Shown: positions 1-14,302, numbered from the stretch's first letter. The stretch is DNA of 64,000 nt from an uncultured Chloroflexia bacterium (GCA_963728205.1 CAVSIV010000006.1:830831-894830), one strand, 5' to 3'. Notes: a model not told the origin generated them from the letters alone. Numbers and translations are program-made.

Positions 1-648
1 CCCGCCCTGCCAGATGGCCGCGTTCACGCCGGTCAGCGTCAGCGGCCGGTCGAACGTGCCGGGGCCGCCGGTCGGCGCCGGCGTCCCCGTGGCGGTCGCG
101 GTGGGCGTGGCCGTGGCGGTCGCCGACGGGGTCGGCGTGGCCGTCGCCACCGTCGACGGCAGCGTGATCGAGATCGTCGCGAAGTTCGAGGTCAGCCCGC
201 CGTTGGTGAACGTGAAGCCGAACGCGTCGGTGCCGATGGCGTTCGCCACCGGCGTGTACTTCACCTCGGCCGTGCAGGAGATCGACGTCGACGCGCCGCT
301 CTGCGGCACGTTCTGCGTGCACGTCACCGCCGCGATCGGCGCGAGCGTGCCCTTCGCCGGGAAGCTCGCGATCGCGAACGACGGGTCGTTCGCCGCCGCC
401 TGCTGCGACGCGTTCAGCACCACCGTGACCGGCGCCGGCGGATACGTCGACCCGATCGTGATCGACCCGTCCTGCGCGACCGGTGAGCCCGGCGCCGGCG
501 TCGCGGTCGGGGTCGCCGTCGGCGTCGCGGTGGCGGTGGCGGTCGGAGTCGGCGTGGGTGTCGGCGTCTGCGCGCCGGTCAGCGCGGGCAGCGCGACGAG
601 CAGCGCCAGCGCGACCACGGCGCCGGCGAACGGGATGCGATAGCGCAT
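1..648 (-). CDS. secreted Thr/Pro-rich surface protein, N-terminal part (gene runs off the left edge)
   Basis: ATG at 646-648 on the minus strand, then signal peptide MRYRIPFAGAVVALALLVALPALTGAQ and TP-rich linkers. It ends with the start of the shared C-terminal module (GTFDRPLTLTGVNAAIWQGG). The frame stays open to position 1. It is absent from the ORF track because there is no stop codon in the window. Confidence 0.8.
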   Translation of the reverse strand, partial: MRYRIPFAGAVVALALLVALPALTGAQTPTPTPTPTATATATPTATPTATPAPGSPVAQDGSITIGSTYPPAPVTVVLNASQQAAANDPSFAIASFPAKGTLAPIAAVTCTQNVPQSGASTSISCTAEVKYTPVANAIGTDAFGFTFTNGGLTSNFATISITLPSTVATATPTPSATATATPTATATGTPAPTGGPGTFDRPLTLTGVNAAIWQGG

Positions 649-694
649 GAGCGACTCCGAACGGCTGCCCCCGCCGAGGCAATCCTACACCCAC

Positions 695-720
695 AACGGA
701 TCAGGTTCCCGATCCGTTCC
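695..720 (-). promoter_or_regulatory. ECF-type promoter candidate (GGAAC-N17-CGTT)
   Basis: On the minus strand, GGAAC (716-720), a 17-nt spacer, then CGTT (695-698), 47 nt upstream of the ATG at 648. The same motif and spacing occur at 10311-10337 and 14047-14071. Confidence 0.45.
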
Positions 721-742
721 GCCTGGCGTGGCTCCGCGGCAG

Positions 743-873
743 CCACAGCGGCGTCAGACAGCCGCCACAGGCCGGCGCCCGCAAGGCGCCGCGGGTCGCG
801 GCCGCTCCCGTCGCCCATCTGTCGGTGCCCCTTCGGCTCCGCTCAGGGCAGGCTGAGTCTCACGCCGCTCTGG
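743..873. repeat. decayed copy of the double-hairpin palindromic (REPIN-like) element
   Basis: Left arm CCACAGCGGCGTCAGACAGCCGCC and right arm GGCTGAGTCTCACGCCGCTCTGG resemble the arms of the intact element at 2743-2913. Indels break the arm hairpins. Confidence 0.5.
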
Positions 874-1083
874 CGAATCAGGCGTCGACGGCTACCGCCG
901 ACCGCGATCGCGCAGTCCCTGAGATCAACCCCGCTGCGTCTGCCTGCTCGTGAAGGCGGTCGTGGCGGCGATCCGGACACCGAGCCGAGAAAGTCGTCCG
1001 GCCCCGGACGCGATGTGGCCAGAGGATGATCGAGCGCTTGCACAGGGCGCCCAGGTCTGACGCCTCGTTGGGCCGCGAGATGG

Positions 1084-1115
1084 TACACTGCGAGCGTGGC
1101 ACTGATGCCACGCTC
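1084..1115 (+). promoter_or_regulatory. -10-like hexamer plus palindromic operator of a TA operon
   Basis: TACACT (1084-1089) is followed by a perfect 10-4-10 palindrome GAGCGTGGCA-CTGA-TGCCACGCTC (1092-1115), 20 nt upstream of the antitoxin ATG. Confidence 0.5.
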
Positions 1116-1134
1116 CGATCGAAGGGCTCACAAG

Positions 1135-1473
1135 ATGCCGAAACGATCAGCCGCCAACTTCCACAAGCGCATGCTCGCCGCACGCATGCGGGATCCCGAG
1201 TTTCGCCAGGAGTACCAGCGTGCGCGGCGCGAGATCGACCAGGTCGATGCCGTGATCCGGCAACTTGACCGCCTTCGCGAAGAGGCCGGCATCTCGAAGG
1301 CCGCCCTCGCACGCAACATCGGCCGCGACCCGTCGAGCATCCGCCGGCTGTTCACCGCAAGCGGCAATCCCGAGCTGCTGCTCGTGGCCTCCATCGCCGA
1401 AGACCTCGACGCCGAGATCCGCGTGGTCCCACGCAAACGCGCTCGTGGGCAAGGCGATCCATCTGCGGCCTGA
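1135..1473 (+). CDS. XRE-family HTH antitoxin (HigA-like)
   Basis: 112 aa from ATG 1135 (RBS GAAGGG). HTH block ISKAALARNIGRDPSSIRRLF. It lies 33 nt upstream of a RelE/Gp49-like toxin ORF. Confidence 0.75.
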   Translation: MPKRSAANFHKRMLAARMRDPEFRQEYQRARREIDQVDAVIRQLDRLREEAGISKAALARNIGRDPSSIRRLFTASGNPELLLVASIAEDLDAEIRVVPRKRARGQGDPSAA

Positions 1474-1505
1474 CCTGCCTGCAATCAACGAACGGCCGCG
1501 CTCCG

Positions 1506-1925
1506 TTGACATGGGACACCGTCTACTACGCAGCAAGCGACGGCAGCGTGCCCGCGGCGGACTTCCTCGACCGCTGCCCGTCCCGGGTTGCTGCGACGAT
1601 CCTGGCGGTACTCGACGCCGTCGCCACCGCACCGCCGCCCCAATTCTCCGGCGGCGGCAGGTGGGAAGCCATGCACGGCGAGATGCACGGCTACTACGAA
1701 GTGCGCACGACCCGTCCCGGCCGCGAGCACTTCCGGCTGTTCTGCCTCCTCGAGAATGGCACTCCAACGGAGCTGGCTCGACGCGGACTCGACGGACCGG
1801 CGATCGCCGTGCTTACGGGAATGCGCAAGCCCTCGCGCACGACGTTCAGCGCCCACGACTACGCGGCCGTGCACCGGATCGGCGAAGACCACCGGTCGAA
1901 GTTCCCGCGTCGCCTCGCCGTCTAG
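1506..1925 (+). CDS. RelE/ParE-superfamily toxin, phage Gp49/HigB-like
   Basis: TTG start, 139 aa. WDTVYYAASDGSVPAADFL ... YYEVRTTRPGREHFRLFCLL ... AIAVLTGMRKPSRTT fits the Gp49-like toxin pattern. It is paired with the HTH gene upstream. Confidence 0.7.
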   Translation: MTWDTVYYAASDGSVPAADFLDRCPSRVAATILAVLDAVATAPPPQFSGGGRWEAMHGEMHGYYEVRTTRPGREHFRLFCLLENGTPTELARRGLDGPAIAVLTGMRKPSRTTFSAHDYAAVHRIGEDHRSKFPRRLAV

Positions 1926-2104
1926 CCGAACGGCCGGCGGTGTGAAAGTGAACCGCTGCCACCCGGCCGCCGCCCGCGGGCCAGCGGCGCCTGCGGGCGC
2001 CGACATGCGGCATCACGCGCGACATGGGTGCGCCGATCGCTCCCCTGGAGGCTTGCCGAACGAGCAAACAGCCCTCGCGGTGCGCGGGGCCAGGGTCCGC
2101 GAGT

Positions 2105-2110
2105 TATACT
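2105..2110 (+). promoter_or_regulatory. -10 hexamer positioned for a leaderless mazEF transcript
   Basis: TATACT ends 6 nt before the ATG at 2117, which leaves no room for an RBS. Confidence 0.4.
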
Positions 2111-2116
2111 GGCGGT

Positions 2117-2356
2117 ATGAAGACCGCCATCTCCCTGCCCGACGAGCTCTTCGAGGCCATGGAACAACTCGTTCGCCGCTCCGGTGGCAGCCGGAGCGAG
2201 CTGTACGCCTCCGCCCTCCGCGAGTACGTGCAGCGCCACTCGCCGGATGCGGTCACAGAGGCGATGAACGAGACCCTCCGCCAGCTGAACGGCGAGTCCG
2301 GCTACGACTTCAGCAGTACGGCAGCGCAACGCATCCTGGCGGACAGCGAGTGGTGA
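2117..2356 (+). CDS. mazE: ribbon-helix-helix antitoxin (MazE/CopG-like)
   Basis: 79 aa with N-terminus MKTAISLPDELFEAMEQLVRRSGGSRSELYASALREY. Its TGA stop overlaps the GTG of the next gene (GTGA). Confidence 0.75.
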   Translation: MKTAISLPDELFEAMEQLVRRSGGSRSELYASALREYVQRHSPDAVTEAMNETLRQLNGESGYDFSSTAAQRILADSEW

Positions 2357-2700
2357 TCTCGCAGGGCGAGATCTGGTGGGCGGACCTTCCCGCACCATCC
2401 GGGTCAGCGCCCGGCTTCCGTCGCCCCGTGCTGGTCGTCCAGGGCGACGACCTCAATCGCAGCGACCTCCGGACGGTGATCTGCGTCGCCCTCACCAGCA
2501 ACCTGCGGTGGGCAGGAGCACCGGGCAACGTCGTCCTTCCCGCCAGTACGTCCCGCCTCCCCAGGGATTCCGTGGTCAACGTCTCGCAGATCGTCACGCT
2601 CGATCGCGAGGCATTGACGGACCGGGTTGCGCGGATTCCACGACCAACGCTCGCGGTCGTGCTCGCGGGGATCGACGTCGCACTCGGAAAGCCGCGCTGA
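2353..2700 (+). CDS. mazF: PemK/MazF-family endoribonuclease toxin
   Basis: 115 aa from GTG 2353. ISQGEIWWADLP ... GFRRPVLVVQGD ... VICVALTSN ... VVNVSQIVTLD is the MazF fold signature. Confidence 0.85.
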   Translation: MISQGEIWWADLPAPSGSAPGFRRPVLVVQGDDLNRSDLRTVICVALTSNLRWAGAPGNVVLPASTSRLPRDSVVNVSQIVTLDREALTDRVARIPRPTLAVVLAGIDVALGKPR

Positions 2701-2742
2701 CCGGGGAGGTTGCCGGTCCCCCCGGCTGCCCGCCGCCGCGCG

Positions 2743-2913
2743 CCAAAGCGGCGTCAGACATGACGCCGACGGACCCGGCGGCGCGAGCCGCCTGGCGGGC
2801 CGCGATGACGCCGAGCGTCGCCTTCGGGGGAGGCGCGGGATGGTCCCCGCACCCGGGTTGGCGGCGGCCGAAGCGCCGCCGACCTGTCGGCGTCATGTCT
2901 GACGCCGCTTTGG
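2743..2913. repeat. double-hairpin palindromic element, subfamily B (REPIN-like)
   Basis: Arm CCAAAGCGGCGTCAGACATGACGCCGACGG (2743-2772) and its reverse complement (ending 2913) flank a spacer of about 110 nt. Each arm contains the hairpin CGGCGTCA-GACA-TGACGCCG. Confidence 0.85.
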
Positions 2914-3297
2914 TCGCGGGGGTATCGCCCTACTTCACGAGCACGACGACGATGTCGCCGTGGTTCGGCTCCCGCAGGCTCGAGGGGAGGCGCGGGATGG
3001 TCCCCGCACCCGGGTTGGCGGCGGCCGAAGCGCCGCCGACCTGTCGGCGTCATGTCTGACGCCGCTTTGGTCGCGGGGGTATCGCCCTACTTCGCGAGCA
3101 CGACGACGATGTCGCCGTGGTTCAGCTCCCGCAGGCTCGAGGGGAGGCGCGGGATGGTCCCCGCACCCGGGTTGGCGGCGGCCGAAGCGCCGCCGACCTG
3201 TCGGCGTCATGTCTGACGCCGCTTTGGGCGCGGGGTATCGCCCTACTTCACGAGCACGACGACGATGTCGCCGTGGTTCAGCTCCCGCAGGCTCGAG
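2828..3297. repeat. tandem triplication of a 157-bp unit (half palindromic element plus gene 3' end)
   Basis: Units start at 2828, 2985 and 3142 (157/157/156 bp, a few substitutions). Each unit contains the distal spacer, the right arm of the element, a 13-nt gap, the stop codon and the last 18 codons (SSLRE[L/P]NHGDIVVVLVK) of CDS 3243-3947. Only the third copy is joined to the gene. Confidence 0.9.
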
Positions 3298-3947
3298 ACG
3301 AAGTCCGGCGCCCCGGCGACGTACTGCCGCACCATCCCGCCCGAGACCCGGAACACGAGCTGCACCTGCCGCGGGATCGTCGCGACCGCATCCGCGATCG
3401 GCGTCGCGTCCGCGCCGTCCCACGTGAGGAGGCCGTAGCCGGACCCCGGCGGGAGCGCGCCGGTGAAGCCGCCGACCGCCACGACGTCGGTCGCCGCGGT
3501 GAGGTTCACCTGCTGCGGGGTCGTGCTCCACGTCGCGACCTGCGTCGCGGCGAGCCCCGGGTCCACCGCGCCGTACATCAGCAGGAAGCGCACGTCGTCG
3601 CCCGGCGCCGGGCAGCCGGCGTGGGTCTCCGACGACGCCACCGAGAGCATGTAGAACCCGCTGCCGGCGCCGGTCTTCGTGACGTCCGCGGTGCCGCAGA
3701 CGGCGGGCTCATGCCCCGGCGCGGCCGGACCCAGCGCGCGCACCTTCGACGGCAGCGCGCCCGACTGATCCGCGTAGACGAAACCGAAGATCGTCGACGC
3801 GCCCCCATCGGCCCGCGCGCGTCCCGCCGTCGCCGGCAGGAGCGCGCCGGCGACGAGCACCGCGGTCATGATTACCAGGATCGCCAGCGCGCGCGGACTG
3901 CGCGCAGCGCTACCGAGCCGACCGGTCCCGGCTCTCGAATCCATCAC
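3243..3947 (-). CDS. secreted hypothetical protein with the shared C-terminal module
   Basis: 234 aa with a signal peptide (ALAILVIMTAVLVAGALLPATAGRARA). The C-terminus YVAGAPDFVSSLRELNHGDIVVVLVK is related to the IPGAPAFVNA...VLVVK module of neighbouring surface proteins. Confidence 0.75.
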   Translation of the reverse strand: MMDSRAGTGRLGSAARSPRALAILVIMTAVLVAGALLPATAGRARADGGASTIFGFVYADQSGALPSKVRALGPAAPGHEPAVCGTADVTKTGAGSGFYMLSVASSETHAGCPAPGDDVRFLLMYGAVDPGLAATQVATWSTTPQQVNLTAATDVVAVGGFTGALPPGSGYGLLTWDGADATPIADAVATIPRQVQLVFRVSGGMVRQYVAGAPDFVSSLRELNHGDIVVVLVK

Positions 3948-4062
3948 ACCCGACCCCCGTCCGCCCCGGCGCAGTCGCGCGCGGAACGAGAAGATTGCGG
4001 AACCGGCCCCGCCGGCTCCCTTCCGCGTTCGACCCGTGGTCGTGTCGAGCGGGGAAGGGAGT

Positions 4063-4130
4063 CCCCGTCCCCTCCGAGGAGAGGACGGGGGTCCCGTTCA
4101 CGAACGTGCGCCGCTCGCGAGGAGCGGCGC
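4063..4130 (-). terminator. two GC-rich hairpins downstream of CDS 4148-4660
   Basis: GCGCCGCTC-GCGAG-GAGCGGCGC (4108-4130) and CCCCGTCC-N12-GGACGGGG (4063-4090) follow the stop codon on the minus strand. There is no U tract. Confidence 0.5.
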
Positions 4131-4147
4131 GCGCTCGAGCTGCGTGC

Positions 4148-4660
4148 CTAGCGGCGGCGCGTGGCGGCGCGAGCGCCACCGACCGCGATCACCGCGAAGG
4201 CGGCCAGCGCCAGCATCGAGGCGAGCCCCGTGCTGTGGCCGACCAGGAAGCCCGCGTTGCCGGTGCCGGCCGGGGCCGGAGCCGTGCTCGTGGCCGTCGG
4301 GGTCGCCGTGGCCGAGGCCGTCAGCGTGACACCGTTGGCAACGTTCGCCGGCGCGCCGCCGGCCTTGTAGGTCTCCTTGGCCGTGGTCGGGGCGCCGTTC
4401 AGCGTGAAGGTGAGCGTGTCACCGTCCGCCGGGCTGCAGGTCGCGTTGGACGCGATCTGGAGCTGCCACTGGCCGCTGGCGTCGGCCGTAGCCGTGCCGC
4501 AGGACTTGGCGCCGTCGAAGACCTCGACCTTGTCGCCGGCCTTGAGGCCGACGCCGTAGACCGTCATCGGGGGCACCTGCGCCGAGGCGATCGTCGCGAA
4601 CATCATGAGCGCGACGGCCGCGACGCCGAACGGCACCGCCATTTTCCGGAGAAGACTCAT
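4148..4660 (-). CDS. secreted protein with a C-terminal anchor-like or sorting-signal-like tail
   Basis: 170 aa from ATG 4658-4660 (RBS AAAGGAG). Signal peptide MSLLRKMAVPFGVAAVALMMFATIASAQ, then a T/P/A linker. The tail is GNAGFLVGHSTGLASMLALAAFAVIAVGGARAATRRR. Confidence 0.75.
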   Translation of the reverse strand: MSLLRKMAVPFGVAAVALMMFATIASAQVPPMTVYGVGLKAGDKVEVFDGAKSCGTATADASGQWQLQIASNATCSPADGDTLTFTLNGAPTTAKETYKAGGAPANVANGVTLTASATATPTATSTAPAPAGTGNAGFLVGHSTGLASMLALAAFAVIAVGGARAATRRR

Positions 4661-4796
4661 CTGCAAGAACTCCTTTGAGTTCTGACCCGCCCCTGGGTGG
4701 TTAGCCATCCGTCCCCCTCACGCTCGTGAGCGTCCGGCGGAGCTGGGTGGGTACGCGTGCCTCCCTCATCGCGAGATGGCCGGGAGGCGGAGACAA

Positions 4797-4833
4797 GGTT
4801 CACCCCCCGCCCCGAGAGGACGGGGGGTGAACC
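4797..4833 (-). terminator. hairpin terminator of the large surface-protein gene
   Basis: Perfect 13-bp stem GGTTCACCCCCCG / CGGGGGGTGAACC with an 11-nt loop, starting 10 nt after the TAA stop (4843-4845) on the minus strand. Confidence 0.6.
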
Positions 4834-4842
4834 GCTAGTCGC

Positions 4843-6660
4843 TTACTTGACGACGAGGACGATCGTGCCCGCCGGGACCTCGTTCGGGAAGGCGGCGTTG
4901 AACGCCGCGTTCACGAACGCCGGGGCGCCCGGGATGAGCACAACGGCCTGGCCGTTGACGAAGACCGTCACCGAGATGCCGCCCGCCGCGGAGACCGCGG
5001 ACGAGAGCTGGGCAACCGTGCCGCCGTTCCAGACCGCGGTGTTGACACCGACGTTCGGGATTGCGCGGTCAAAGGTGCCCGCGCCGGTCGTGCCGGTCGG
5101 GGTCGCCGTCGGCGTGGCCGCCGGGGCACCGACAGTGGCAACCGTCGAGTCAACGACGGAACCGGATGCGCTCGGGCACGTCGGGGCCGCAGAGGAACCG
5201 GTCTGAGCGGCGACCAAGACACTGCCCGAGGTACCGGTCAGTGCAGCCGTCGTGTTCGCCGTCCCGCTCGACGTGGTGCCGCACGCGACCGAAACAACAC
5301 CCTGGGTCGAGGGGATGTTAAAGGTCACGACGGTGCCGTTTGCGGCCATGTTGCCAGAGGCATCCACAACCGTCGCCGTCACCTTGTTGGCCGTCACTGC
5401 AGCAGTAACAGTTGCCGGCTTGCCAGCCGCCGTCACCGTCGCCGTCGCGGCCGGAACCGACGACGTCGTGATGTCAGTCGCGGTGATCGTCGCCGTGCCA
5501 AGCTGGGTGGCGGATGCGCAGTACGTGACGTACGCGTAGCCCGGCGTCCCGCTCAGCGAGGCCGTTGTCGCCGTGACCGCCTTGGCCGTAGTCGAGGTGG
5601 CCGGGGTTGCCAGACAAGCCGCGCTGGCGCCGCTCGCCAGGAAGCCCTTGTCCACCGAAACCTGCAGGAGCTGACCGTTGACGCCAGCACCCGTCGCGTC
5701 AGTGACGCGGAAAAGCACGTTCGTACCCGTGGTCGGCGACGTGTAGGACGCCGACGAGCTGCTGGCCGCAACGTTCGCGTCAGTGACCTTCACCGTCGTG
5801 AGGGTCGTCGGCGTCGTGCCGGTCGCAGCCTGCAGCGTCAGCGTCGTCGTGTCGACAGCGCTGAGCGACGGAACGGAGGCAACGATGGTGTCGCTACCCG
5901 ACGTCCCATTGCCCTTGTATGCGACCGACGCACAGCCGGTCGTCGCGTCCGTGAAGGAGCTCGCCGAGTTGGTGCCGGTCGCAACGAAGAGACCCAGGCT
6001 GCCAGTGAAGTTCACCTGCGTGGGAGCAGTGGGAACGGGCGAGACACAAGCCTTGATGGTCGACGCCTGCGCGCCGCTCGCAGCGATCGTTGCCGGGGTC
6101 GCGATGACTGAAACGGCGTTTGAGGTCGAAACAGTCAGCGCACCCGCAACCGGCGTACCGAAGGTACCAGCCGCACCGCCGCCGAGTGCGGACGTGATAT
6201 TGCCAGTGGCAGCAGTGGTGCTAATGGGCCGCACCTGAATGCCGGAGATGGTGACCGTGTCACCAGCGACATTCGCGGTAGTGGCCGTGCCGGTGGTAAT
6301 CGTGGCGGCCGCAACCGTAGCCGTTCCAGCGACGCCCGCGACTGTGCCGGTCGTGGTAACCGTCACGGTAGCCGCTGTATTGAACTCCCAGTCCGCGCTC
6401 GGCCGGGAAAGCACGATCGAGTCGCCAATCGCGATATCTCCGGTCGCACCGGTCGTGAACTTAGCGTCCGGCAGAGTCGTCCAGGCACCAGTCCCAGTCG
6501 TCGCGTTCGTTGCCAGCGAGATGGTGGCGCTGGCGGAGCTTGTCGTCGTCGCCGCCGCACTCGCCGTCCGCGCCGTTCCCGAAACGAGCAGCGCTACAGC
6601 GAGCACCAACGACGCGGCAACAGCAGAGCCGTACCACGCGTACTTCTTGAAAAGACTCAA
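4843..6660 (-). CDS. large secreted surface protein with Ig-like (Big_1-type) repeats and the shared C-terminal module
   Basis: TTG start at 6658-6660, 8 nt after GGAGGA; there is no in-frame ATG near the signal peptide LSLFKKYAWYGSAVAASLVLAVALLVSGTARTASA. 605 aa, T/A/S/G-rich, with invasin-like repeats such as VTATVVDASGNMAANGTVVTFNIPS. It ends VLIPGAPAFVNAAFNAAFPNEVPAGTIVLVVK. Confidence 0.8.
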   Translation of the reverse strand: MSLFKKYAWYGSAVAASLVLAVALLVSGTARTASAAATTTSSASATISLATNATTGTGAWTTLPDAKFTTGATGDIAIGDSIVLSRPSADWEFNTAATVTVTTTGTVAGVAGTATVAAATITTGTATTANVAGDTVTISGIQVRPISTTAATGNITSALGGGAAGTFGTPVAGALTVSTSNAVSVIATPATIAASGAQASTIKACVSPVPTAPTQVNFTGSLGLFVATGTNSASSFTDATTGCASVAYKGNGTSGSDTIVASVPSLSAVDTTTLTLQAATGTTPTTLTTVKVTDANVAASSSSASYTSPTTGTNVLFRVTDATGAGVNGQLLQVSVDKGFLASGASAACLATPATSTTAKAVTATTASLSGTPGYAYVTYCASATQLGTATITATDITTSSVPAATATVTAAGKPATVTAAVTANKVTATVVDASGNMAANGTVVTFNIPSTQGVVSVACGTTSSGTANTTAALTGTSGSVLVAAQTGSSAAPTCPSASGSVVDSTVATVGAPAATPTATPTGTTGAGTFDRAIPNVGVNTAVWNGGTVAQLSSAVSAAGGISVTVFVNGQAVVLIPGAPAFVNAAFNAAFPNEVPAGTIVLVVK

Positions 6661-7142
6661 AGCAGTTGTCCTCCAATTGAGAACGTTGTCACTCGATAAC
6701 ACGCACTTCGATTCTCTGCGATGCCTCCTCTCGCCGCGTCCGGCTCCTCCGTGAGGGGGAGCGCCCCGTTCCTGGCAGAACGGCGGCCGGCGAGCCTTCT
6801 TTCCAAGCGGTGCTGATACCGCCGCTCGAGCAAAACGCCACCAGCGCCGCTCGAAATCACGCTCGCTGCGAACCTTCGAAATCCGCGACGGGCGGCGTGG
6901 TCCAAGACACACACCTCACGCCACGAGACTTAGAACGCCCCCGGGCAAGACTGAGTTAACAGCGGGGGTGGGCCTGATACGCAGTAAAGAGGTAACCGGG
7001 CAAGACGAGTGGCGCGACCTGACGAACGCCCGCAGGTCGATCCCCTATCGGGAGCGCGCTAGCCGGTGACCGCGCGATCGGCGACGATCGTCCAAGCATT
7101 GATCTCAGCACGACGCCGGCGCACCTGAAGGAAGCGGCTGCC

Positions 7143-7748
7143 ATGACGAACTCAAACCACCGACGCGCCGAGTCAGACGCGACCGCCGCGTTCGGCGGCA
7201 ACGGTCAGCCGGACGGACCGCGTCGCTGGTTTCGTGGACCATGGGGCGTGGTCGCGGCCGGTGGACTGATTACGGCAGTGCTTGCCGCCACGCTCGTGAT
7301 CCTGCTTCCGCGGGGCGATCACTCCCGCGAACCCGCGAAGACGACCACCCCAGTCGCGCATGTCGTTACCGGTGGCATTGGGGACCCACTTCGCGTCGGA
7401 TCGCTCGCCCTGAGGGTGATCGAAGTCAACGCGGCCTTCGATGGTAGCCACTATGCACCCGCGAACACCGCTACCTCCGCCGTCCATATCGCAGTGACTA
7501 ACGCAGGAGATACCGGCAATCCCATTCAGCTGGCGACAAAGGACTTTCGCCTGATCGACGAAGATGCAGGCGGCCATGGAACCGTGGGTTGCGCGCAATG
7601 TCCCGCGGTGATCGGCAACGTCAATCAGCTCGTTCCTAACGGCGGGATCGACGGGTGGTTGTACTTCGCGTTGCCCGCGGGAACGACAGCCAGCCAACTC
7701 GTCTACACCGGAGCTACCGGGATCACGGCCACGATCACGCTCCGCTAG
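7143..7748 (+). CDS. membrane-anchored hypothetical protein (DUF4352-like beta domain, tentative)
   Basis: 201 aa with one TM helix (WGVVAAGGLITAVLAATLVILL) followed by a beta-rich domain. Third-position GC is visibly lower than in neighbouring genes. Confidence 0.65.
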   Translation: MTNSNHRRAESDATAAFGGNGQPDGPRRWFRGPWGVVAAGGLITAVLAATLVILLPRGDHSREPAKTTTPVAHVVTGGIGDPLRVGSLALRVIEVNAAFDGSHYAPANTATSAVHIAVTNAGDTGNPIQLATKDFRLIDEDAGGHGTVGCAQCPAVIGNVNQLVPNGGIDGWLYFALPAGTTASQLVYTGATGITATITLR

Positions 7749-7759
7749 GCGAAGCGAAC

Positions 7760-8878
7760 CTACGGGGCCACGGCGTCGGGCGGGACAGTACCAACCGCCC
7801 GCGTCGCCGAGGGCACCACCGTCGCGGGCGCCGTCGAACTCGATGCCGCGGTTCCTCTCCCGTTCGGGGTCCCCGACGGACTCGCCGCTGGGGTGAGAGC
7901 ATCGGTTGTGGCCGGTATGGCGGTCCCCGTCGCCTGTACCGTCGCCGTCACCGTGCTTGTCGGCGTTTCGGTGGTGTCGGCCGTCGGCGTCTCCGTCGCA
8001 GTTACCTCGGACGTCGGCGTCGCCGTCTCCGTCGCCTCGGGCGTCGCCGTCGCCGTCTCCGTCGCCACAGGCGTCCCGGCGTCCCCGTGCGACTCGAGGT
8101 AGCGCGCCGCGGTCACGACGCCCTGGTCGGCCGTCACCTGCGCGGCGCTCAGCGCACCCTCGGCGCCCGCCTCGGGCTTCGCCGTCTGCAGCACCTGCCG
8201 GCTCTGGTTCGCGGCGCGCGCGTACTGCGCGACGGTGCCGGGGTCGACGCGCTCGGGCTGCGCGGCGATCTGCTGCTGCACCGAGGCGTTGTCCTCGGTC
8301 ACGCGGCGGAGGAGGTCGGTCTGCACGGGCACGCCGCGCTGCGTGTTGCTCGCGATCTCGGCGAGCGTGGTCTGCAGCCGTGCGAGCTGCGCGTCGAGCG
8401 AGCGCGGGGTCTGGTTCTCGACGGTCGGGCCGGTCGCCAGCTGCGGCGTGCCGGAAAGGCCGCCGCCGGCGAAGGCGGTGAAGGTGATCGCCGCGGCGGC
8501 GGCCGCGGCGGCCATCGGCGCGAACACCGAGACGACGCGGGTGCGCAGGCGGCGCCGGCGCTCGGCCGCGAGCGACACGGGCGCGCGCTCCATGCGGTGC
8601 AGGATCGCGGCGCGCGAGCGGGCGCGGTAGGAGTCGAAGGCGGGGCCATCGGTGGCGTCGGCGAAGAGGTGCTGGAGGACGGCGGCGGTCTGGACGAGGC
8701 CGGCGAGCGCGGGGTCTTCGCGCGGATCGACGTCGGGCTCGCGACCGGACGCGAGCTCCTCGAGCGCCTCGTCCAGGCGCTGGGCCTCGGCCAGGTCGGC
8801 GGCGTCCCCGGTGAAGAGGGGGTCCCCCCGCCGGGTATCCCCGGCGTCGAAGGAGTGCAGCGGCTGGTCTGCCGACAT
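7760..8878 (-). CDS. anti-sigma-factor-like membrane protein
   Basis: 372 aa from ATG 8876-8878 with a single TM helix (VVSVFAPMAAAAAAAAITFTAFAGG) and a T/E/A/P-rich extracytoplasmic tail. It lies downstream of the ECF sigma gene on the same strand. No zf-HC2 motif was seen. Confidence 0.65.
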   Translation of the reverse strand: MSADQPLHSFDAGDTRRGDPLFTGDAADLAEAQRLDEALEELASGREPDVDPREDPALAGLVQTAAVLQHLFADATDGPAFDSYRARSRAAILHRMERAPVSLAAERRRRLRTRVVSVFAPMAAAAAAAAITFTAFAGGGLSGTPQLATGPTVENQTPRSLDAQLARLQTTLAEIASNTQRGVPVQTDLLRRVTEDNASVQQQIAAQPERVDPGTVAQYARAANQSRQVLQTAKPEAGAEGALSAAQVTADQGVVTAARYLESHGDAGTPVATETATATPEATETATPTSEVTATETPTADTTETPTSTVTATVQATGTAIPATTDALTPAASPSGTPNGRGTAASSSTAPATVVPSATRAVGTVPPDAVAP

Positions 8879-9112
8879 CTCCGACCCGTTCCGGGCCGCC
8901 CACGCGTGGGGCGGCCACACTGTGCCGGTGAGTCGCCGGGCGGCTTGCGCCGGCCGCGCGCCATCGGGGCTGGCGGAGCATCGTCGGTGGCGCCGTGCCG
9001 TGGGTTCGCCCTGCGGCGACTGGCCCCCGCCAGGCTCGGCGGTCCGCGATGATCCTCTCGTGGTCTGCGCGACCGGCGGGCGTTAGGCCCGGGGGTCGCC
9101 TGCTGGTGGCGT

Positions 9113-9330
9113 CAGCAGCGGGCGGTACGCCCGCTGTGCGCCTGTGTGCGGCGGGCCGTGGCCCGCTGTGCGCCTGGCAGCGGGCGGGACGCCCGCTGTG
9201 CGCCTGTGTGCGGCGGGCCGTGGCCCGCTGTGCGCCTGGCAGCGGGCGGGACGCCCGCTGTGCGCCTGGGCAGCGGGCCTACCGCCCGCTGTGCGCCTGG
9301 CAGCGGGCGATACGCCCGCTGTGCGCCTGG
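9113..9330. repeat. tandem array of seven hairpin units between the sigma and anti-sigma genes
   Basis: Units of 29-33 bp. Each is a hairpin, either CAGCGGGCG-NNN-CGCCCGCTG or GCGGGCC-GT-GGCCCGC, followed by TGCGCCTGG. The first four units form two 62-bp higher-order repeats. There are no spacers. Confidence 0.9.
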
Positions 9331-9356
9331 GTCGCGGACGGACGTCCGCGGCGTTC

Positions 9357-10232
9357 CTACTGGTCCGCGCTCCGCACCCAACTGGGCTCGGGGCGCGTGT
9401 CGCGGAGGATCTGCTTCAGGCGCTGCACGCCCTTGTGCTGCAGCACCTTGACGTTGCCCTGCTGCTTCCCGAGCGCCTCGGCCGTTTCCGCGACGGAGAG
9501 GCCGGCGCCGAATCGCAGGCGAATCACGTCGCGCTGCGCTTCGGGGAGCAGTTCGACCGCGTCAAAGACCTCCTCGATCGTCAACTGCGTCTCGGCGAGG
9601 TCCTGCGGGCCGCGGCGCTCGTCCGCGATCCAGTCCGGGACCTCGGCGCCCGGGTCGTCCTTCACCACGCGGCGATGGACGGTGGCCCGGCGGTGGAACG
9701 AGACGACGTGGTTGTGAGCGATGCGGAACAGCCAGGCCGCGAAGGGGCTGCGCTCCCCCGCGCCGATGTCCCGCCACTCGAACCCGTCGACCGCCCCCAG
9801 GACCTTGAGGAAGATCTCTTCCGCGAGGTCCTCCGCGTCCGTCTCGTTGCCGACGCGCGCCAGGCAGTAGCGATACAGCCTGGTGACGTACGCGTCGTAC
9901 AGGAGGCCTACCGCCTCCAGGTCTCCGTGAGCGGCACGCTGCACGTACTCGCGCTCGACGGCGACGGACAGCTGGTTCGGATTCGACGGCGCTGGTCTCG
10001 CGGGATCCCCCGTTCGTCGCGGGGAGTCGGCAGCGGGATCGGCGCCCTCGGCGTGTGGCGAGATGTCTGCCACCGGGCTTCCCTTCGCGCCGGCCCCCGC
10101 TGCGACCGGCCCCGGTGGGCCGTCCAGTGCATCGGGATCGCGGGACGGGCTCCCCGCACCGGCATGACCGGGGAGGTGCGCGTCCGCACGAGTATAGGTG
10201 GCCTGCGCCAAGGGGAGAGGTGTGTCGGACAT
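9357..10232 (-). CDS. ECF (sigma-70 family) RNA polymerase sigma factor
   Basis: 291 aa from ATG 10230-10232. Region 2 (LYRYCLARVGNETDAEDLAEEIFLKV, FAAWLFRIAHNHVVSFHRR) and region 4 (LPEAQRDVIRLRFGAGLSVAETAEALGKQQGNVKVLQHKGVQRLK) are present. It has a P/A/G-rich N-terminal extension of about 95 aa. Confidence 0.9.
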   Translation of the reverse strand: MSDTPLPLAQATYTRADAHLPGHAGAGSPSRDPDALDGPPGPVAAGAGAKGSPVADISPHAEGADPAADSPRRTGDPARPAPSNPNQLSVAVEREYVQRAAHGDLEAVGLLYDAYVTRLYRYCLARVGNETDAEDLAEEIFLKVLGAVDGFEWRDIGAGERSPFAAWLFRIAHNHVVSFHRRATVHRRVVKDDPGAEVPDWIADERRGPQDLAETQLTIEEVFDAVELLPEAQRDVIRLRFGAGLSVAETAEALGKQQGNVKVLQHKGVQRLKQILRDTRPEPSWVRSADQ

Positions 10233-10310
10233 CTCCCACCGCACTATCAACAACGGTACGGACCGTGACCGGGTTAACGGGGGGCGCAGGCGCGGGGGCC
10301 GCATGAGGTG

Positions 10311-10337
10311 TAACGAAGGCGGAGGGGGATTCGTTCC
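10311..10337 (-). promoter_or_regulatory. ECF-type promoter candidate upstream of the sigma gene (autoregulation)
   Basis: On the minus strand, GGAAC (10333-10337), spacer GAATCCCCCTCCGCCTT (17 nt), then CGTTA (10311-10315). It sits between the NYN stop codon and the sigma ATG. Confidence 0.5.
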
Positions 10338-10370
10338 GGGGCGGTTTGCATGGCGCGCGGTCACGCGCCT

Positions 10371-10982
10371 TTACCAGCTCGCTGGCTTCGAGAAGGTCCC
10401 CGTGGCGTCCGTGAGTGTGGTCGGGAACTGACTTGCGGAGAGGACCCCCGCGCGAATCGGTTTGTAGAAGGTCGAGACGTTCCGCAGATCGTACGCCTGC
10501 TTCTTGTGGGGGTTCAGCAGTCCCACCGGCAGCCGCAGGTCATTCATCACGAGCTCAATCGGCGTCTTGAGGTCGGAGTCGTTGGAGATGACGACCGCCT
10601 GTTCGAACCCTCCACGATGCGCATCGTGGAGCGGGTGGCTGGCCAGATTCACGTCGGAGCCCTTCTCCTCGGTGTCATGGACCCACACGTATCCGCCTCC
10701 GTTCACGAGGGGGCGGGACTTCTGCTTTGCGAGGAAGCGCCCGAGGTAGACCGTGACGCACGGAATGTCGCAAGGGCCCGCAGGTCGATCTGTTGTCGCT
10801 GGGCCGCCTGCGGGTCCGACGGGCGGCTGGTCACGGGTGCTGTGAAGTAGCGGATGCGCTGAACTTGATGGCCGGGGAAGCAGGTGCCGGCACAGCGTCT
10901 CGATGTCGATCCACTTGTACACGGTGCCCTTCAGGGCGCCGTAGTACAGGTTGAAACCGTCCACGTACACATTCGTGCGCAT
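10371..10982 (-). CDS. NYN (LabA/PIN-like) domain protein with an internally frame-swapped segment
   Basis: The 203-aa frame is open. MRTNVYVDGFNLYYGALKG and EEKGSDVNLA ... VVISNDSDL ... LLNPHK are NYN-like. About 37 codons (10765-10877) are read in a non-conserved frame. The +1 frame over that stretch encodes the expected GHQVQRIRYFTAPVTSRPSDPQAAQRQQIDLRALAT. Confidence 0.7.
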   Translation of the reverse strand: MRTNVYVDGFNLYYGALKGTVYKWIDIETLCRHLLPRPSSSAHPLLHSTRDQPPVGPAGGPATTDRPAGPCDIPCVTVYLGRFLAKQKSRPLVNGGGYVWVHDTEEKGSDVNLASHPLHDAHRGGFEQAVVISNDSDLKTPIELVMNDLRLPVGLLNPHKKQAYDLRNVSTFYKPIRAGVLSASQFPTTLTDATGTFSKPASW

Positions 10983-11306
10983 AGGCAGAGACCCCCGTCA
11001 CCGGGGGTCTCGCGCCCAGCGGCCGAGGCCACTGGGGGGATATCGGGATCGATCCTGACCCGCCCCGGTCAACATGTCACGCGAGAACGGCCAACAACTA
11101 CCCGCAAATGTGGTGGCCGGGTCCGCCCGCAGCGAAAGCTACCAGCGTTCCTCGCGCGACCGGCACGACACCTGCGGATTTGCAGGGGCGTGCCCGCAAT
11201 CCAGACGGTGCTAGGAAGGGGCCGGCGAGCGAGGATCGCATGCGAACCGCCGTCGGGCCGACCGGCGGCGCGCAGAGCCAACGGGCGGCCACGGGAGTGT
11301 GCGTGT

Positions 11307-11328
11307 TACGATGTATTGCGCTGCAATA
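11307..11328 (+). promoter_or_regulatory. -10-like hexamer plus AT-rich palindromic operator
   Basis: TACGAT (11307-11312), then TATTGC-GCT-GCAATA (11314-11328), just upstream of RBS GCGAGG and the ATG at 11341. Confidence 0.45.
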
Positions 11329-11340
11329 AGCGAGGCCGCG

Positions 11341-11763
11341 ATGCCCCAATCGACCATGAGCCTCCGTCTCGACGACGAGCTGCGCACCCGCCTCGCCGAT
11401 GCCGCCACGCAGGCGGGGACGACCGTCACGGCGCTGGTCGACCGCTTCGTGCGCGAGGGCCTCGCCCTGGACGGCCACCCCGGCATCACGTTCAAGCCCG
11501 GGCCGTCCGGGCGGCGCGCGGCGCTCGCCGGCGGGCCCGACGTCTGGGAGGTGGTAGCCGCGCTGCGCGACGTCGCGGGGACCGGGTCGCAGCGGGTCGC
11601 CGCGCTGGCGGCGCAGTTCGGCATCCACGAGCGCCAGGTCGTCGCGGCGCTCGACTACGCAGCCGCGCACCGCGACGAAGTGGAGGCACGGGTCCGCGCG
11701 AACGACCGTGCGCTCGAGGAGGCGGAGCGCGTGGCCCTCGAACGGGGGCGCCTGCTCGCGTGA
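11341..11763 (+). CDS. antitoxin-like protein (RHH N-terminus plus DUF433-like domain)
   Basis: 140 aa. MSLRLDDELRTRLADAA is RHH-like. ITFKPGPSGRRAALAGGPDVWEVV ... VAALDYAAAHRDEV is DUF433-like. Its stop codon overlaps the GTG of the next gene. Confidence 0.7.
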   Translation: MPQSTMSLRLDDELRTRLADAATQAGTTVTALVDRFVREGLALDGHPGITFKPGPSGRRAALAGGPDVWEVVAALRDVAGTGSQRVAALAAQFGIHERQVVAALDYAAAHRDEVEARVRANDRALEEAERVALERGRLLA

Positions 11764-12092
11764 AGTTCCTCGTCGACGGGATGCTCCCGCCGGCGGTCGC
11801 GGACCTCCTGAACGCCTCCGGGCACGACGCGGTCACCCCGGCCGACCTGGGCGCCCACAGCCTTCCCGACGACGTGCTGGTCCGGCTGGCGACGGCGGAG
11901 GCGCGCGTGATCGTCACCGAGAACGCAAGCGACTTCGCCCGCGTCGCGACGTGCCCGGTGCTGTTCGTCCGCAAGTCATGGTGGCCGACGGGCGCGCTCG
12001 CGGAGGGGCTGGCGCGCTCGCTCGACCGATGGGCGACGGCGCATCCCGACCCCGGGCCGTGGCCGCACTGGCTCGAGTCGACGGAGCGCTGA
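11760..12092 (+). CDS. DUF5615 / Mut7-C PIN-like putative toxin
   Basis: 110 aa from GTG 11760 (GTGA overlap). VKFLVDGMLPPAVADLLNASGHDAV ... VIVTENASDFARV is typical of DUF5615 partners of DUF433 proteins. Confidence 0.7.
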   Translation: MKFLVDGMLPPAVADLLNASGHDAVTPADLGAHSLPDDVLVRLATAEARVIVTENASDFARVATCPVLFVRKSWWPTGALAEGLARSLDRWATAHPDPGPWPHWLESTER

Positions 12093-12117
12093 CCGATCGC
12101 CCGGGGAAGGTGGGCGG

Positions 12118-12213
12118 CGGCGTGGTCACGGGGCGGCGTGGTCGCCAGGGTCGTGGGGTCACGGGGTCGTGGCGTCACGGGGGTCACGGGGTCGTGGGGT
12201 CACGGGGTCGCGC
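12118..12213. repeat. short tandem repeat (about 16-bp unit CGTGGGGTCACGGGGT, about 5.5 copies)
   Basis: Read directly from the sequence. It is intergenic, between the DUF5615 stop codon and the vapB promoter region. Confidence 0.8.
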
Positions 12214-12288
12214 GTTGATCCTCAGCCCGCTCACGCGGCGGCCGTTCGCCGTGGCGTAACTCGAGTCGGTCCGCGGCCACGCGCCTGA

Positions 12289-12317
12289 ATGGTAGAATCG
12301 CCATACGCGATGGTAGA
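12289..12317 (+). promoter_or_regulatory. vapBC promoter/operator candidate
   Basis: TAGAAT (12293-12298) is embedded in a direct repeat of ATGGTAGA (12289-12296 and 12310-12317, 21 nt apart), upstream of RBS GAGGTG and the ATG at 12343. Confidence 0.4.
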
Positions 12318-12342
12318 CGCGGACCCGAGGTGCGACGTGAGC

Positions 12343-12594
12343 ATGAACATCAAGAGCGAGGACGCACACCGACTCGCCCGCGAGTTGGCGTCGCTGACAG
12401 GCGAGAGCGTCACCGCTGCCGTGACGGAGGCCCTGCGCGAGCGCCTCGAGCGCGTTCGCCGCGAGCGGGGCGAAGAGACGCTCGCCGACCGGTTGGCCGC
12501 TATCTGCCGAGCATCCGCGCCACACTTCCGGGAGGGGTTCCGGTCCGCCAATCATGCCGACCTCCTGTACGACCAGCGCGGCCTGCCGCGGTGA
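12343..12594 (+). CDS. vapB: VapB-family antitoxin
   Basis: 83 aa. MNIKSEDAHRLARELASLTGESVTAAVTEALRERLERV is the typical VapB N-terminus. Its TGA stop overlaps the GTG of vapC. Confidence 0.85.
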   Translation: MNIKSEDAHRLARELASLTGESVTAAVTEALRERLERVRRERGEETLADRLAAICRASAPHFREGFRSANHADLLYDQRGLPR

Positions 12595-12986
12595 TCCTCG
12601 AGACCTCCGCGCTTCTCGCGATGCTGCTCGACGAGCCGGACGCCGAGGCGTATCAGCGGGCGATCGACGCTGCGTCGACGCGGCGGATATCCGCGGGCAC
12701 GCTGCTCGAGACGTGCATCGTGGTGGACGGCAACGGCGATGCGGTCGCCGGTCGCCTCCTCGACAATCTCCTCGCCGCAGCGGGGGTCGCGGTTGAGCCG
12801 GTCACGGTGGAGCAGGTGCGCATCGCGCGCGCCGCCTACCGCGACTTCGGCCGGGGAAGCGGTCATCCGGCGCGCCTGAACTTCGGTGACTGCTTCGCGT
12901 ATGCGCTCGCCAGGGCCACCGGCGAGCCGCTGCTGTTCAAGGGCGAGGACTTCGCGCAAACCGACCTCCGCTCCGCGCTGACCTAG
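12591..12986 (+). CDS. vapC: PIN-domain ribonuclease toxin VapC
   Basis: 131 aa from GTG 12591. VILETSALLAMLLDEPD ... ISAGTLLETCIVV ... LNFGDCFAYALA carries the PIN acidic residues. Confidence 0.9.
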   Translation: MILETSALLAMLLDEPDAEAYQRAIDAASTRRISAGTLLETCIVVDGNGDAVAGRLLDNLLAAAGVAVEPVTVEQVRIARAAYRDFGRGSGHPARLNFGDCFAYALARATGEPLLFKGEDFAQTDLRSALT

Positions 12987-12993
12987 CGCGCAA

Positions 12994-13091
12994 CCACAGC
13001 GGCGGCAGACATGCCGCCGACAGAACGCGGACGCCAGTCTGCGCGGCCGGCGCCGGGGCGCCTGTCGGCGGCATGTCTGCCGCCGCTGTGG
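12994..13091. repeat. double-hairpin palindromic element, subfamily A (REPIN-like)
   Basis: Arm CCACAGCGGCGGCAGACATGCCGCCGACAG and its reverse complement flank a 38-nt near-palindromic spacer. It lies 8 nt after the vapC stop and about 105 nt after the convergent stop at 13196. Confidence 0.9.
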
Positions 13092-13195
13092 TTCATGGGG
13101 TGGCCCGCGCACAGAAAGTGGGCGGGCCGCCCCGGGAGAGGCGGCCCGCCTGCGAAGCGGTCGGACGGCGGGCCGGTCCGCCCGCGCGCGCTTCG

Positions 13196-13999
13196 CTACT
13201 TGACGACCAGCACGATCGTGCCGGCGGGAACGGTCGAGGGATACGTCGCGTTGAACTCGGCGTTCACGAACGCCGGGGCGCCGGGGATCAGCACCTGGGC
13301 CTTGCCGTTGACGAAGACCGTCACCGAGATGCCCTGCGCCGCGAGCGTCGCGGACGCCATCTGCTGCACGGTGCCGCCCTGCCAGATCACGGGGTTGACG
13401 CCGACCGTGTCGATCGGGCGGTCGAACTTGCCGAGCAGGTTGACCGCAAGCGCGCTCAGGCTCGTGACGTCGGCGACGTCGTTCGTGCCGTTGGAGACCG
13501 TCGCGTCGCCGTCGAGCGAGATGCCGATCGTGCCGGAGGCGGTGTCGGCGGTGTCGGGCTGCACCTTGATGCCGGACAGCATGAGCGTGTCACCGGCGGC
13601 GGAGCCGGTGGTCACGTTCAGCACGATCTCGTGCTGCGTCGGGGTGACGGTGCCGGTGGCGGCGCCGCCGATCTGGAGCGTGCCGGTGCCGCCGACGGTG
13701 TAGGTGACCGGGGCGGAGGTGTCGAACGACCAGCCGGTCGGGGCCTCGATCTTGATGCCGTTGGCGGTGGTCATCTCGTTGCCGGTCGCCGTGATCGTGA
13801 TCGGCGTGAGCGCCGTGAAGGTGTTGGCGCCGGTCGCGGCGTTGGTCGTCGGCTGGATCACGGCGTCGGCGCGCGTGGTCACCGTCGGCGCCGCGGCCTG
13901 CGCGAGGCCGGGCGCGGCCGCGAGGAGCATGCCGGCCGAGGCCGCGAGTGCAGCGATGGCGGCGCCTCCGCGCCAGGTCCAGGTGCGCAGTCTGCTCAT
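13196..13999 (-). CDS. secreted surface protein with the shared C-terminal module
   Basis: 267 aa from ATG 13997-13999 (RBS GGAGAGGA). Signal peptide GGAAIAALAASAGMLLAAAPGLAQA. It ends GKFDRPIDTVGVNPVIWQGG ... VLIPGAPAFVNAEFNATYPSTVPAGTIVLVVK. Confidence 0.85.
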   Translation of the reverse strand: MSRLRTWTWRGGAAIAALAASAGMLLAAAPGLAQAAAPTVTTRADAVIQPTTNAATGANTFTALTPITITATGNEMTTANGIKIEAPTGWSFDTSAPVTYTVGGTGTLQIGGAATGTVTPTQHEIVLNVTTGSAAGDTLMLSGIKVQPDTADTASGTIGISLDGDATVSNGTNDVADVTSLSALAVNLLGKFDRPIDTVGVNPVIWQGGTVQQMASATLAAQGISVTVFVNGKAQVLIPGAPAFVNAEFNATYPSTVPAGTIVLVVK

Positions 14000-14046
14000 A
14001 GGTGCGTGGTTCCTCTCCTGTGGGTGGTTGCGCTGTCGAGGGTTCC

Positions 14047-14071
14047 AACGACGGCGGGAACGGGAGGGTTC
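14047..14071 (-). promoter_or_regulatory. ECF-type promoter candidate (GAAC-N17-CGTT)
   Basis: On the minus strand, GCGAAC (GAAC at 14068-14071), a 17-nt spacer, then CGTT (14047-14050), 48 nt upstream of the ATG at 13999. The leader length is nearly the same as at 695-720. Confidence 0.4.
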
Positions 14072-14127
14072 GCGCGAGATCGCGCGATCGTGCGGATCGA
14101 TAGGGAATCGATAGGGGCGCATCGCCG

Positions 14128-14224
14128 CCACAGCGGCGGCAGACATGCCGCCGACAGGGACGCGGCGCCAGCCGCGCGGACCGGCGTCCGCGTGCTGTCG
14201 GCGGCATGTCTGCCGCCGCTGTGG
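14128..14224. repeat. double-hairpin palindromic element, subfamily A
   Basis: Both 30-nt arms are intact. It lies 79 nt upstream of the transposase-like ORF. Confidence 0.9.
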
Positions 14225-14302
14225 TTCGCGCAGGTCACCTTGCGGGCGGTGGCCGTCAAGCCTGACGGCGACGGGAATGCGCTCGGCCGCCACCCTGTGC
14301 AC

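Follow-up and report, generated by a model that had tools for sequence, protein, structure and literature searches.

Candidate promoters and gene module of a BldN-like ECF sigma factor in an uncultured Chloroflexia bacterium

Does a promoter layout shared by several genes define one regulon? The question is raised by a 64,000-nucleotide stretch of DNA from an uncultured Chloroflexia bacterium (GCA_963728205.1, CAVSIV010000006.1:830831-894830), hereafter the window, in which a gene encoding a sigma factor of the extracytoplasmic function (ECF) type, called sigma-1, lies among genes for paralogous secreted proteins. A preliminary description of the sequence had noted GGAAC-N17-CGTT motifs upstream of sigma-1 and of two surface-protein genes (A and H), and had proposed a single regulon, autoregulated by sigma-1 through this motif. 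The window has a GC content of 72%, and homologues of its proteins are found in Chloroflexota metagenome-assembled genomes labelled Dehalococcoidia. Comparison of 80 orthologous sigma-1 loci (denoted by L numbers; the related loci total about 780 kb) points to a different arrangement. Sigma-1, the membrane protein gene E and the surface-protein genes D, C and B probably make up a conserved module, in which sigma-1 would read TTAACY-N16-CGTT sites before its own gene and before gene D, and the sites of the preliminary description would belong to other ECF sigma factors. Which sigma factor reads which site, as well as all transcription starts, we infer from sequence comparison. The genes on which the argument turns are:

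1-648, minus strand: gene A, secreted protein with signal peptide and TP-rich linkers, cut by the window edge
3243-3947, minus strand: gene B, secreted paralogue with signal peptide, carrying a diverged copy of the C-terminal domain
4148-4660, minus strand: gene C, small secreted protein
4843-6660, minus strand: gene D, TTG start, 605-aa secreted protein, T/A/S/G-rich, with signal peptide
7760-8881, minus strand: gene E, membrane protein, candidate anti-sigma factor
9357-10071, minus strand: sigma-1, BldN-like ECF sigma factor, probable GTG start at 10071 (MADISPH...), open reading frame (ORF) open to ATGs 10232 and 10304
13196-13999, minus strand: gene H, 267-aa secreted paralogue with signal peptide, single-gene unit with terminator at 13121-13150

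Gene A had been called truncated. It is cut by the window edge, but is not truncated in the genome.

Sigma-1 and its own promoter

ECF sigma factors usually autoregulate, and conservation of upstream motifs is the standard route to their promoter (PMC7826278). Since they usually transcribe their own gene, a motif conserved upstream of the orthologues identifies the promoter of sigma-1. A motif fitting the consensus [T/G]TAAC[C/T]-N15/16-CGTT is found upstream of the sigma gene in about 65 of the 80 loci, over a GC range of 0.41-0.73. It is present in the close relatives L081 and L084, as well as in a second subgroup (L089-L092), and was not seen upstream of the sigma gene in L085-L087, the closest relatives. 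In the window this putative promoter and its counterpart before gene D are located at:

10252-10277, minus strand: sigma-1 promoter, TTAACC-N16-CGTT, 180 nt to the GTG at 10071
6934-6959, minus strand: D promoter, TTAACT-N16-CGTT, 273 nt to the D start

These are the two exact matches to TTAACY-N16-CGTT in the window, against 0.00 expected, and allowing one mismatch adds none. Throughout the 780 kb or so of related loci, the pattern is found almost only upstream of the sigma gene and at a second place close by, in front of a gene resembling D. Orthologous sequences further upstream of the sigma promoter are not conserved. About 75 non-redundant orthologous sites have T just before AAC, but this base is fixed by the [G/T]TAAC search pattern. 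A position weight matrix built from sites chosen with the pattern cannot fairly judge GGAAC variants, and the scoring of the previously described sites with it was dropped because of this selection.

Sigma-1 is very probably autoregulated through TTAACC-N16-CGTT. An autoregulated ECF sigma factor had been proposed, and a conserved promoter does precede the gene, but its motif is not GGAAC-N17-CGTT, which is found in few orthologous loci, namely L006, L007, L012 and L084 and, as GAAAC, L081, and is absent from most. The conserved promoter lies 35 nt downstream of the GGAAC site at 10312.

That the gene encodes an ECF sigma factor is agreed upon by Pfam, NCBIfam and Protein Data Bank (PDB) matches. 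Sigma-1 is matched by the Pfam models Sigma70_r2, r4, r4_2 and Sigma70_ECF, lacks regions 3 and 1, and scores 91.5 bits against TIGR02937 (cut-off 42.9). The best NCBIfam match is the BldN family TIGR02952 (ECF121), with 136.8 bits, under the cut-off of 206.45; ShbA comes second. The best PDB match is 6dxo_A (E = 2e-23), which we take to be the RsbN-BldN complex.

In the database annotation sigma-1 starts at ATG 10304, 7 nt past the CGTT of the 10312 site. The GTG at 10071 is the more likely start, because it matches the starts of proteins P0002 and P0006, because the frame upstream of the equivalent GTG is closed by stops in L081 and L084, and because a CCACCTATA(A/C)T box, conserved in the window and in close relatives, is located at 10191-10200. 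The region preceding the GTG has low GC at third codon positions and encodes a non-conserved N-terminus, though the ORF stays open to 10304 in the window. Two other starts were considered and set aside. A leaderless long isoform from ATG 10304 is contradicted by L081, in which the equivalent ATG is out of frame and followed by stops; ATG 10232, with GGTGGGAG as ribosome-binding site, is replaced by ACG at the same position in L081. In the leader (10191-10245, minus strand), a TGCGGTGGGA box is found 8 nt past the -10 CGTT, and the CCACCTATA(A/C)T box some 45 nt beyond it. Many loci from closer relatives keep the TGCGGTGGGA box at the nucleotide level, directly after the -10 box. GGTGG and CCACC tracts of the leader could pair, or a TATAAT-like box could be a housekeeping -10 element.

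Gene D, its cluster and gene E

No motif had been reported upstream of 6660, where gene D starts. This is correct for GGAAC, but the site at 6934-6959 has the same layout, with TTAACT in place of GGAAC. A second TTAACY-type site, equivalent to the D promoter, has been identified in L001, L003, L006-L011, L013, L016, L019 and L089-L092. In most of these loci it precedes a gene for a large secreted protein, with a leader of 250-335 nt, and the C-terminal domain of D was found by tblastn in seven of them (L001, L003, L006, L007, L009, L011, L013). Counted over the loci checked, 16 have a D orthologue with this promoter and a long leader that is conserved. C-like and B-like genes follow the D-like gene in the relatives, where the order is B, C and D, all read away from the sigma gene, then sigma and E in the opposite direction. 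Cluster and sigma gene are thus divergent in these loci; the window has the cluster on the strand of sigma-1 and E, downstream of both, with the linkage preserved. The proposed tie between the sigma factor and the surface-protein paralogues is upheld for gene D, through the site at 6934-6959, but A and H are less likely targets.

The transcript from the D promoter would start with a long leader:

6661-6933, minus strand: D leader, 273 nt from the CGTT box to the TTG start

A block, TGGTGGCGT...GCTCGAGCGGCGG, at 6819-6843 on the minus strand and about 130 nt downstream of the promoter, is invariant in 12 loci and contains the palindrome CGCTCGAGCG. The hairpin predicted in the leader is weak, with little covariation, and the leader matches no Rfam family.

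A C-terminal domain of about 75 aa is common to A, B, D and H and fits the pattern ..FDR.I..GVN..W.GG...VFV.G...IPGAPAFVN...G.IVLVVK. The last residues of A within the window, GTFDRPL..GVNAAIWQGG, correspond to its start. The domain is encoded at 4843-5070 (D), 13196-13430 (H), 3243-3470 (B) and 1-60 (A), and no Pfam family corresponds to it. In a structure model of H, of low confidence, the predicted local distance difference test (pLDDT) score is 55 overall and reaches about 80 only in the C-terminal domain, which is folded as a small alpha/beta domain. The same domain also ends M10 and M23 peptidase homologues (proteins P0124 and P0126), and a similar sequence ends an S8 peptidase in L012 (1623-3668). 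A 157-nt unit present in three tandem copies at 2827-3297, with 99% identity between two of them, reproduces the 3' end of gene B and leaves partial copies of the domain downstream of it.

C and its orthologues end differently, with a (D/G)TGNAG motif (TGNAG in the window), a membrane helix and an Arg-rich tail. This ending may be a sorting signal of sortase type, perhaps an unusual one. The C orthologues of L089-L092 share their gene cluster with a sortase gene (PF04203), but the 64-kb window yielded no sortase.

The N-terminal region of the E protein is conserved; the protein also has one membrane helix and a T/A/P-rich tail on the extracytoplasmic side. In 20 loci the sigma gene is directly followed by an E homologue, and in L092 and L089 the two genes overlap or are 5 nt apart. 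E is a candidate anti-sigma factor of sigma-1 on these grounds. In the window the two genes are separated by a 475-nt gap between the sigma-1 stop and the E start, where 62-nt tandem hairpin repeats (GCAGCGGGCGGGACGCCCGCTGTGCGCCTG...) are found at 9093-9360.

In the proposed mechanism, E would hold sigma-1 at the membrane until an envelope signal released it. Freed sigma-1 would raise its own expression from 10252-10277, a positive autoregulation, and the expression of the surface-protein cluster from 6934-6959. The GGAACG site at 10312 would act as a second promoter, placing sigma-1 under another sigma factor.

The AAC-N17-CGTT layout and the assignment of its sites

The three sites of the preliminary description are all present on the minus strand. 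A fourth exact GGAAC match, located before a lipoprotein gene, had been missed, and sites of the same layout precede two further ECF sigma genes, sigma-2 and sigma-3. These sites, and the genes not listed above, are:

695-720, minus strand: site 1, GGAACggatcgggaacctgatcCGTT, GGAACG-N16-CGTTG, 46 nt from CGTT to the gene A ATG at 648
10312-10337, minus strand: site 2, GGAACgaatccccctccgccttCGTT(A), GGAACG-N16-CGTTA, 240 nt to the sigma-1 GTG at 10071
14047-14073, minus strand: site 3, GCGAACcctcccgttcccgccgtCGTT, GCGAACC-N16-CGTTG, 47 nt from CGTT to the gene H ATG at 13999
57528-57553, plus strand: fourth exact site, GGAACG-N16-CGTTG, 9 nt upstream of the lipoprotein ATG at 57563
18888-18914, plus strand: GCGAACA-N16-CGTTC, 206 nt upstream of sigma-2
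41464-41489, minus strand: GAAACA-N16-CGTTG, 249 nt upstream of sigma-3
19121-21760, plus strand: sigma-2, ECF sigma factor and zf-HC2-like anti-sigma segment in one ORF
39439-41214, minus strand: sigma-3, second fused ECF sigma/zf-HC2 protein
57563-58204, plus strand: lipoprotein gene, ATG at 57563

The leaders of A and H had been given as 47 and 48 nt, one base too long in both cases.

In shuffles of the window GGAAC-N17-CGTT is expected 0.33 times and was found 4 times; GAAC-N17-CGTT was found 7 times against 1.28, and AAC-N17-CGTT, for which 2.37 are expected, gave 14 strand hits, corresponding to 10 unique sites. As a null model shuffling is weak, since GAAC-N13-CGTT is also frequent (9 hits; five of its six sites fall in ORFs of coding-like composition). 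Raw counts are weak evidence when taken alone, and spacings have therefore been compared; position and orientation carry the argument. When AAC and CGTT were set 8 to 27 nt apart, eight fully intergenic sites were found at 17 nt, and none to two at each other spacing. Intergenic DNA makes up about 20% of the window, according to a rough gene map made in the analysis, and has a GC content of 0.74. Each of the eight intergenic sites faces a gene, whose start is 9-273 nt off. Sigma genes follow three of them, and a fourth is the second site at sigma-1. The remaining two of the 10 sites are inside genes, about the chance level. Because the intergenic excess is restricted to this spacing, and all eight sites face genes, the AAC-N17-CGTT layout is a real promoter class of ECF type, and not a product of chance. 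The preliminary description had left open that the motif might be as frequent at random positions; GGAAC-N17-CGTT is above chance, and the spacing control peaks at 17 nt.

The layout had been taken as specific for sigma-1 and its targets. Since it precedes sigma-2 and sigma-3 too, it is generic to ECF promoters in this DNA and does not mark one regulon; A and H are therefore not tied to sigma-1 by layout. The -35 boxes are GGAACG at 10312, 695 and 57528 and GCGAAC at 14047, the latter hexamer being common to the H site and to the site upstream of sigma-2. In sigma-2 and sigma-3 alike, one ORF joins an ECF sigma factor to a zf-HC2-like segment, a membrane helix and a long tail of low complexity, rich in Ala, Ser, Thr and Pro; sigma-2 has (GN)n and (AN)n repeats near the C-terminus. 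The previously described sites are probably real promoters, but for genes A and H a reading by other ECF sigma factors is more likely than one by sigma-1. No obvious cognate sigma gene for the GGAACG class is found in the window.

GGAAC-type elements are found upstream of the sigma promoter in L084 (GGAACG), L006 and L012 (GGAACC) and L081 (GAAACG), and not in most orthologues. The 10312 site may be a real second promoter of sigma-1. In L011 and L013 similar sites are found upstream of the D promoter. For H one usable orthologue is available, with 95 nt of upstream sequence, in which GGAAC is present and CGTT absent. The spacer of the H promoter (ctcccgttcccgccgtCGTT, 14047-14073) differs very little from the spacer of the element that precedes the sigma gene in L081 (ctcccgtcccgccgtCGTT, 2692-2717), which suggests that the H promoter is a copy of an element of the L081 type. 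A paralogous sigma subgroup with an "ELSE" signature was considered as having GGAAC for its own promoter, and was rejected, as L089-L092 of this subgroup also feature TTAACC.

Several observations weigh against the module as proposed. A single sigma factor could read both TTAACC and GGAACG sites, as both have the same AAC core, spacing and CGTT box. The gene divergent from the sigma gene in L092 and L089, an extra gene encoding a membrane protein, is preceded by a GGAACG or GGAAAC-N16-CGTTG site. L012 has GGAACC-N16-CGTT and no other site before its sigma gene; this locus is rearranged, with an E-like gene upstream of the sigma gene. GGAAC-type sites cluster at sigma-1 loci in several relatives, which fits cross-recognition as well as a cascade. 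The assignment of GCGAAC rests on one site, as sigma-2 has no close orthologues, none being nearer than 33-36% identity. Hairpins separate D, C and B, which may or may not be transcribed together. Finally, E matches no Pfam or NCBIfam family and has no recognisable anti-sigma domain; among PDB chains at E <= 1 the only match was irrelevant, though the library includes 6dxo.

In an alternative model sigma-1 would read any AAC-N17-CGTT site, so that the GGAACG, GCGAAC and TTAACY genes would form one autoregulated surface regulon with strong and weak sites. Geometry and -10 box are identical at all sites, and A, H and the lipoprotein gene all encode secreted products. GGAAC-type sites recur beside sigma-1 orthologues (GGAAC in L084, L006 and L012, GAAAC in L081), upstream of the D promoter (L011, L013) and before the divergent membrane-protein genes of L089 and L092, and the L012 sigma factor keeps the region 4 helix NVKVLQHKG in spite of its GGAACC upstream site. 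However, the -35 boxes are mainly of two sets, TTAAC[C/T] and GGAACG, which differ at three of six positions, with some GGAACC intermediates, and T precedes AAC in the 75 or so pattern-fitting sites (the pattern fixing this base), L012 being the sole close relative without the pattern. A second sigma factor is favoured because of these two facts. Moreover, two other ECF sigma genes of the window carry their own sites of the same layout, and the sole H orthologue with upstream sequence has GGAAC and no CGTT. We regard the one-regulon model as unlikely. As for the narrower proposal of a single GGAAC regulon of sigma-1 including A and H, both the sites and the membership are mostly unsupported.

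The GGAACG-N16-CGTT sites might alternatively not be promoters at all, but symmetric operators for a dimeric regulator, hairpins or chance occurrences. AACG...CGTT is self-complementary, and the sites at 695, 10312 and 57530 match on both strands. Site 1 (695-720) is a perfect 8-bp inverted repeat, AACGGATC-N8-GATCCGTT; the 10312 site reads GTAACG-N16-CGTTCC on the plus strand; the L084 element is a perfect GGAACG...CGTTCC palindrome. The N13 spacing, too, yields many chance palindromic hits inside genes. Yet L084 apart, the GG is not mirrored, and the right side reads CGTTGT, CGTTAC or CGTTGA, an asymmetry typical of promoters. Every intergenic N17 site faces a gene start 9-273 nt off, and other spacings never give more than two intergenic sites. 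A non-promoter role appears very improbable. Self-complementary GGAACG sites could nevertheless fire both ways or bind a dimeric protein. The 57528 site sits between divergent genes for a major facilitator superfamily transporter (ATG 57487) and the lipoprotein (ATG 57563), and by its symmetry could serve both strands; a lipoprotein transcript starting from it would be leaderless, or nearly so.

The surroundings of gene H and of the sigma-1 locus host other repeats and genes. Palindromic intergenic elements of about 100 nt, resembling repetitive extragenic palindromes (REPs), with CCACAGCGGCGGCAGACATGCCGCCGACAG arms and a loop of about 37 nt, are located at 12992-13093, 14128-14224, 15005-15113 and 17858-17982, and two copies bracket gene H, its promoter and its terminator. 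Related copies are found near 739-760 and 2743-2913. These REP-like elements give weak spurious microRNA hits in Rfam. A 13-nt tandem repeat (CGCCACCCACAGT) of about 12 copies, at 14875-15042, adjoins one of them. Two further genes near sigma-1 and E are:

7143-7748, plus strand: DUF4352 protein gene
10371-10982, minus strand: NYN-domain gene

L081, a close relative, has genes for a PemK toxin and a coenzyme A (CoA)-transferase before its sigma gene. The window has a CoA-transferase gene homologue at 15325-17266 and a PemK toxin gene at 2311-2700. Between sigma-1 and the CoA-transferase homologue (10371-14300) lie the NYN gene, small unannotated genes and H, and the comparison with L081 suggests that these are insertions. 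No sigma-70-type promoters were found in 1-15000, and a search of 1-22000 against Rfam gave no meaningful matches.

Significance and comparison with known ECF systems

Knowledge of bacteria of this kind comes almost exclusively from metagenomes, and the control of their cell surface is poorly understood. Sigma-1 with its clearly defined promoter, the candidate anti-sigma factor, whose sequence is of a new type, and the conserved cluster of targets make together a concrete, testable regulon. The locus also calls for caution, as a common AAC-N17-CGTT layout does not define one regulon where ECF sigma factors are many, and assigning a promoter to a sigma factor needs the comparison of orthologous upstream regions. 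A similar situation is met in Bacillus subtilis, where sigma-W, sigma-X and sigma-M have overlapping regulons, with the same AAC core, spacing and CGT -10 element, and are discriminated by flanking bases; some ECF promoters of this species are read by more than one sigma factor.

Of the systems described, the closest is the sigma-BldN/RsbN pair of Streptomyces (ECF121), which controls chaplin and rodlin sheath genes and provides both the best NCBIfam and the best PDB match of sigma-1. The BldN promoter, CGTAAC-N16-CGTTGA (PMC2375139), is alike to the (CG)TTAACC-N16-CGTT(G) found here, where the consensus is [T/G]TAACC-N15/16-CGTT. In both systems a single-pass membrane protein, in our case a presumed anti-sigma factor, is encoded beside the sigma gene, and the targets are secreted cell-surface proteins (PMC4125116, PMC6101532). 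Differences are nonetheless several. The phylum is Chloroflexota, the NCBIfam score of sigma-1 is under the family cut-off, and an N-terminal pro-sequence of BldN type, removed by proteolysis, finds no clear support. E has no similarity to RsbN or to any PDB chain, and RsbN has been reported in Streptomyces only (PMC6101532). The targets are large T/A-rich proteins sharing a C-terminal domain, and not chaplins. The gene bldN is not among the reported targets of BldN (bldM and the chaplin, rodlin and rsbN genes), whereas sigma-1 appears autoregulated.

ShbA and SigD (ECF40, Actinobacteria) similarly recognize a -35 element of GTAAC type at a comparable spacing, the sites being CGTAAC-N16-CGATGA and GTAAC-N17-18-CGAT, respectively (PMC12019637). 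Their -10 element is CGAT, in contrast with the CGTT found here, and they target the principal sigma gene or cell-wall functions, a link not seen in this locus.

We put forward, tentatively, that a BldN-like sigma/anti-sigma pair is hard-wired to the main surface-protein cluster across Dehalococcoidia-class Chloroflexota, by means of TTAACC-N16-CGTT and a leader of about 270 nt, with the tandem GGAACG promoter denoting an ECF cascade in control of the cell coat. The cluster would consist of a large coat protein, a protein anchored in sortase fashion and paralogues with a new C-terminal domain in common; such a system might be the Chloroflexota counterpart of BldN and the chaplins. In its general features the system is an ECF module of ordinary kind, whose promoter is clear and whose target is conserved, in a lineage so far unstudied.

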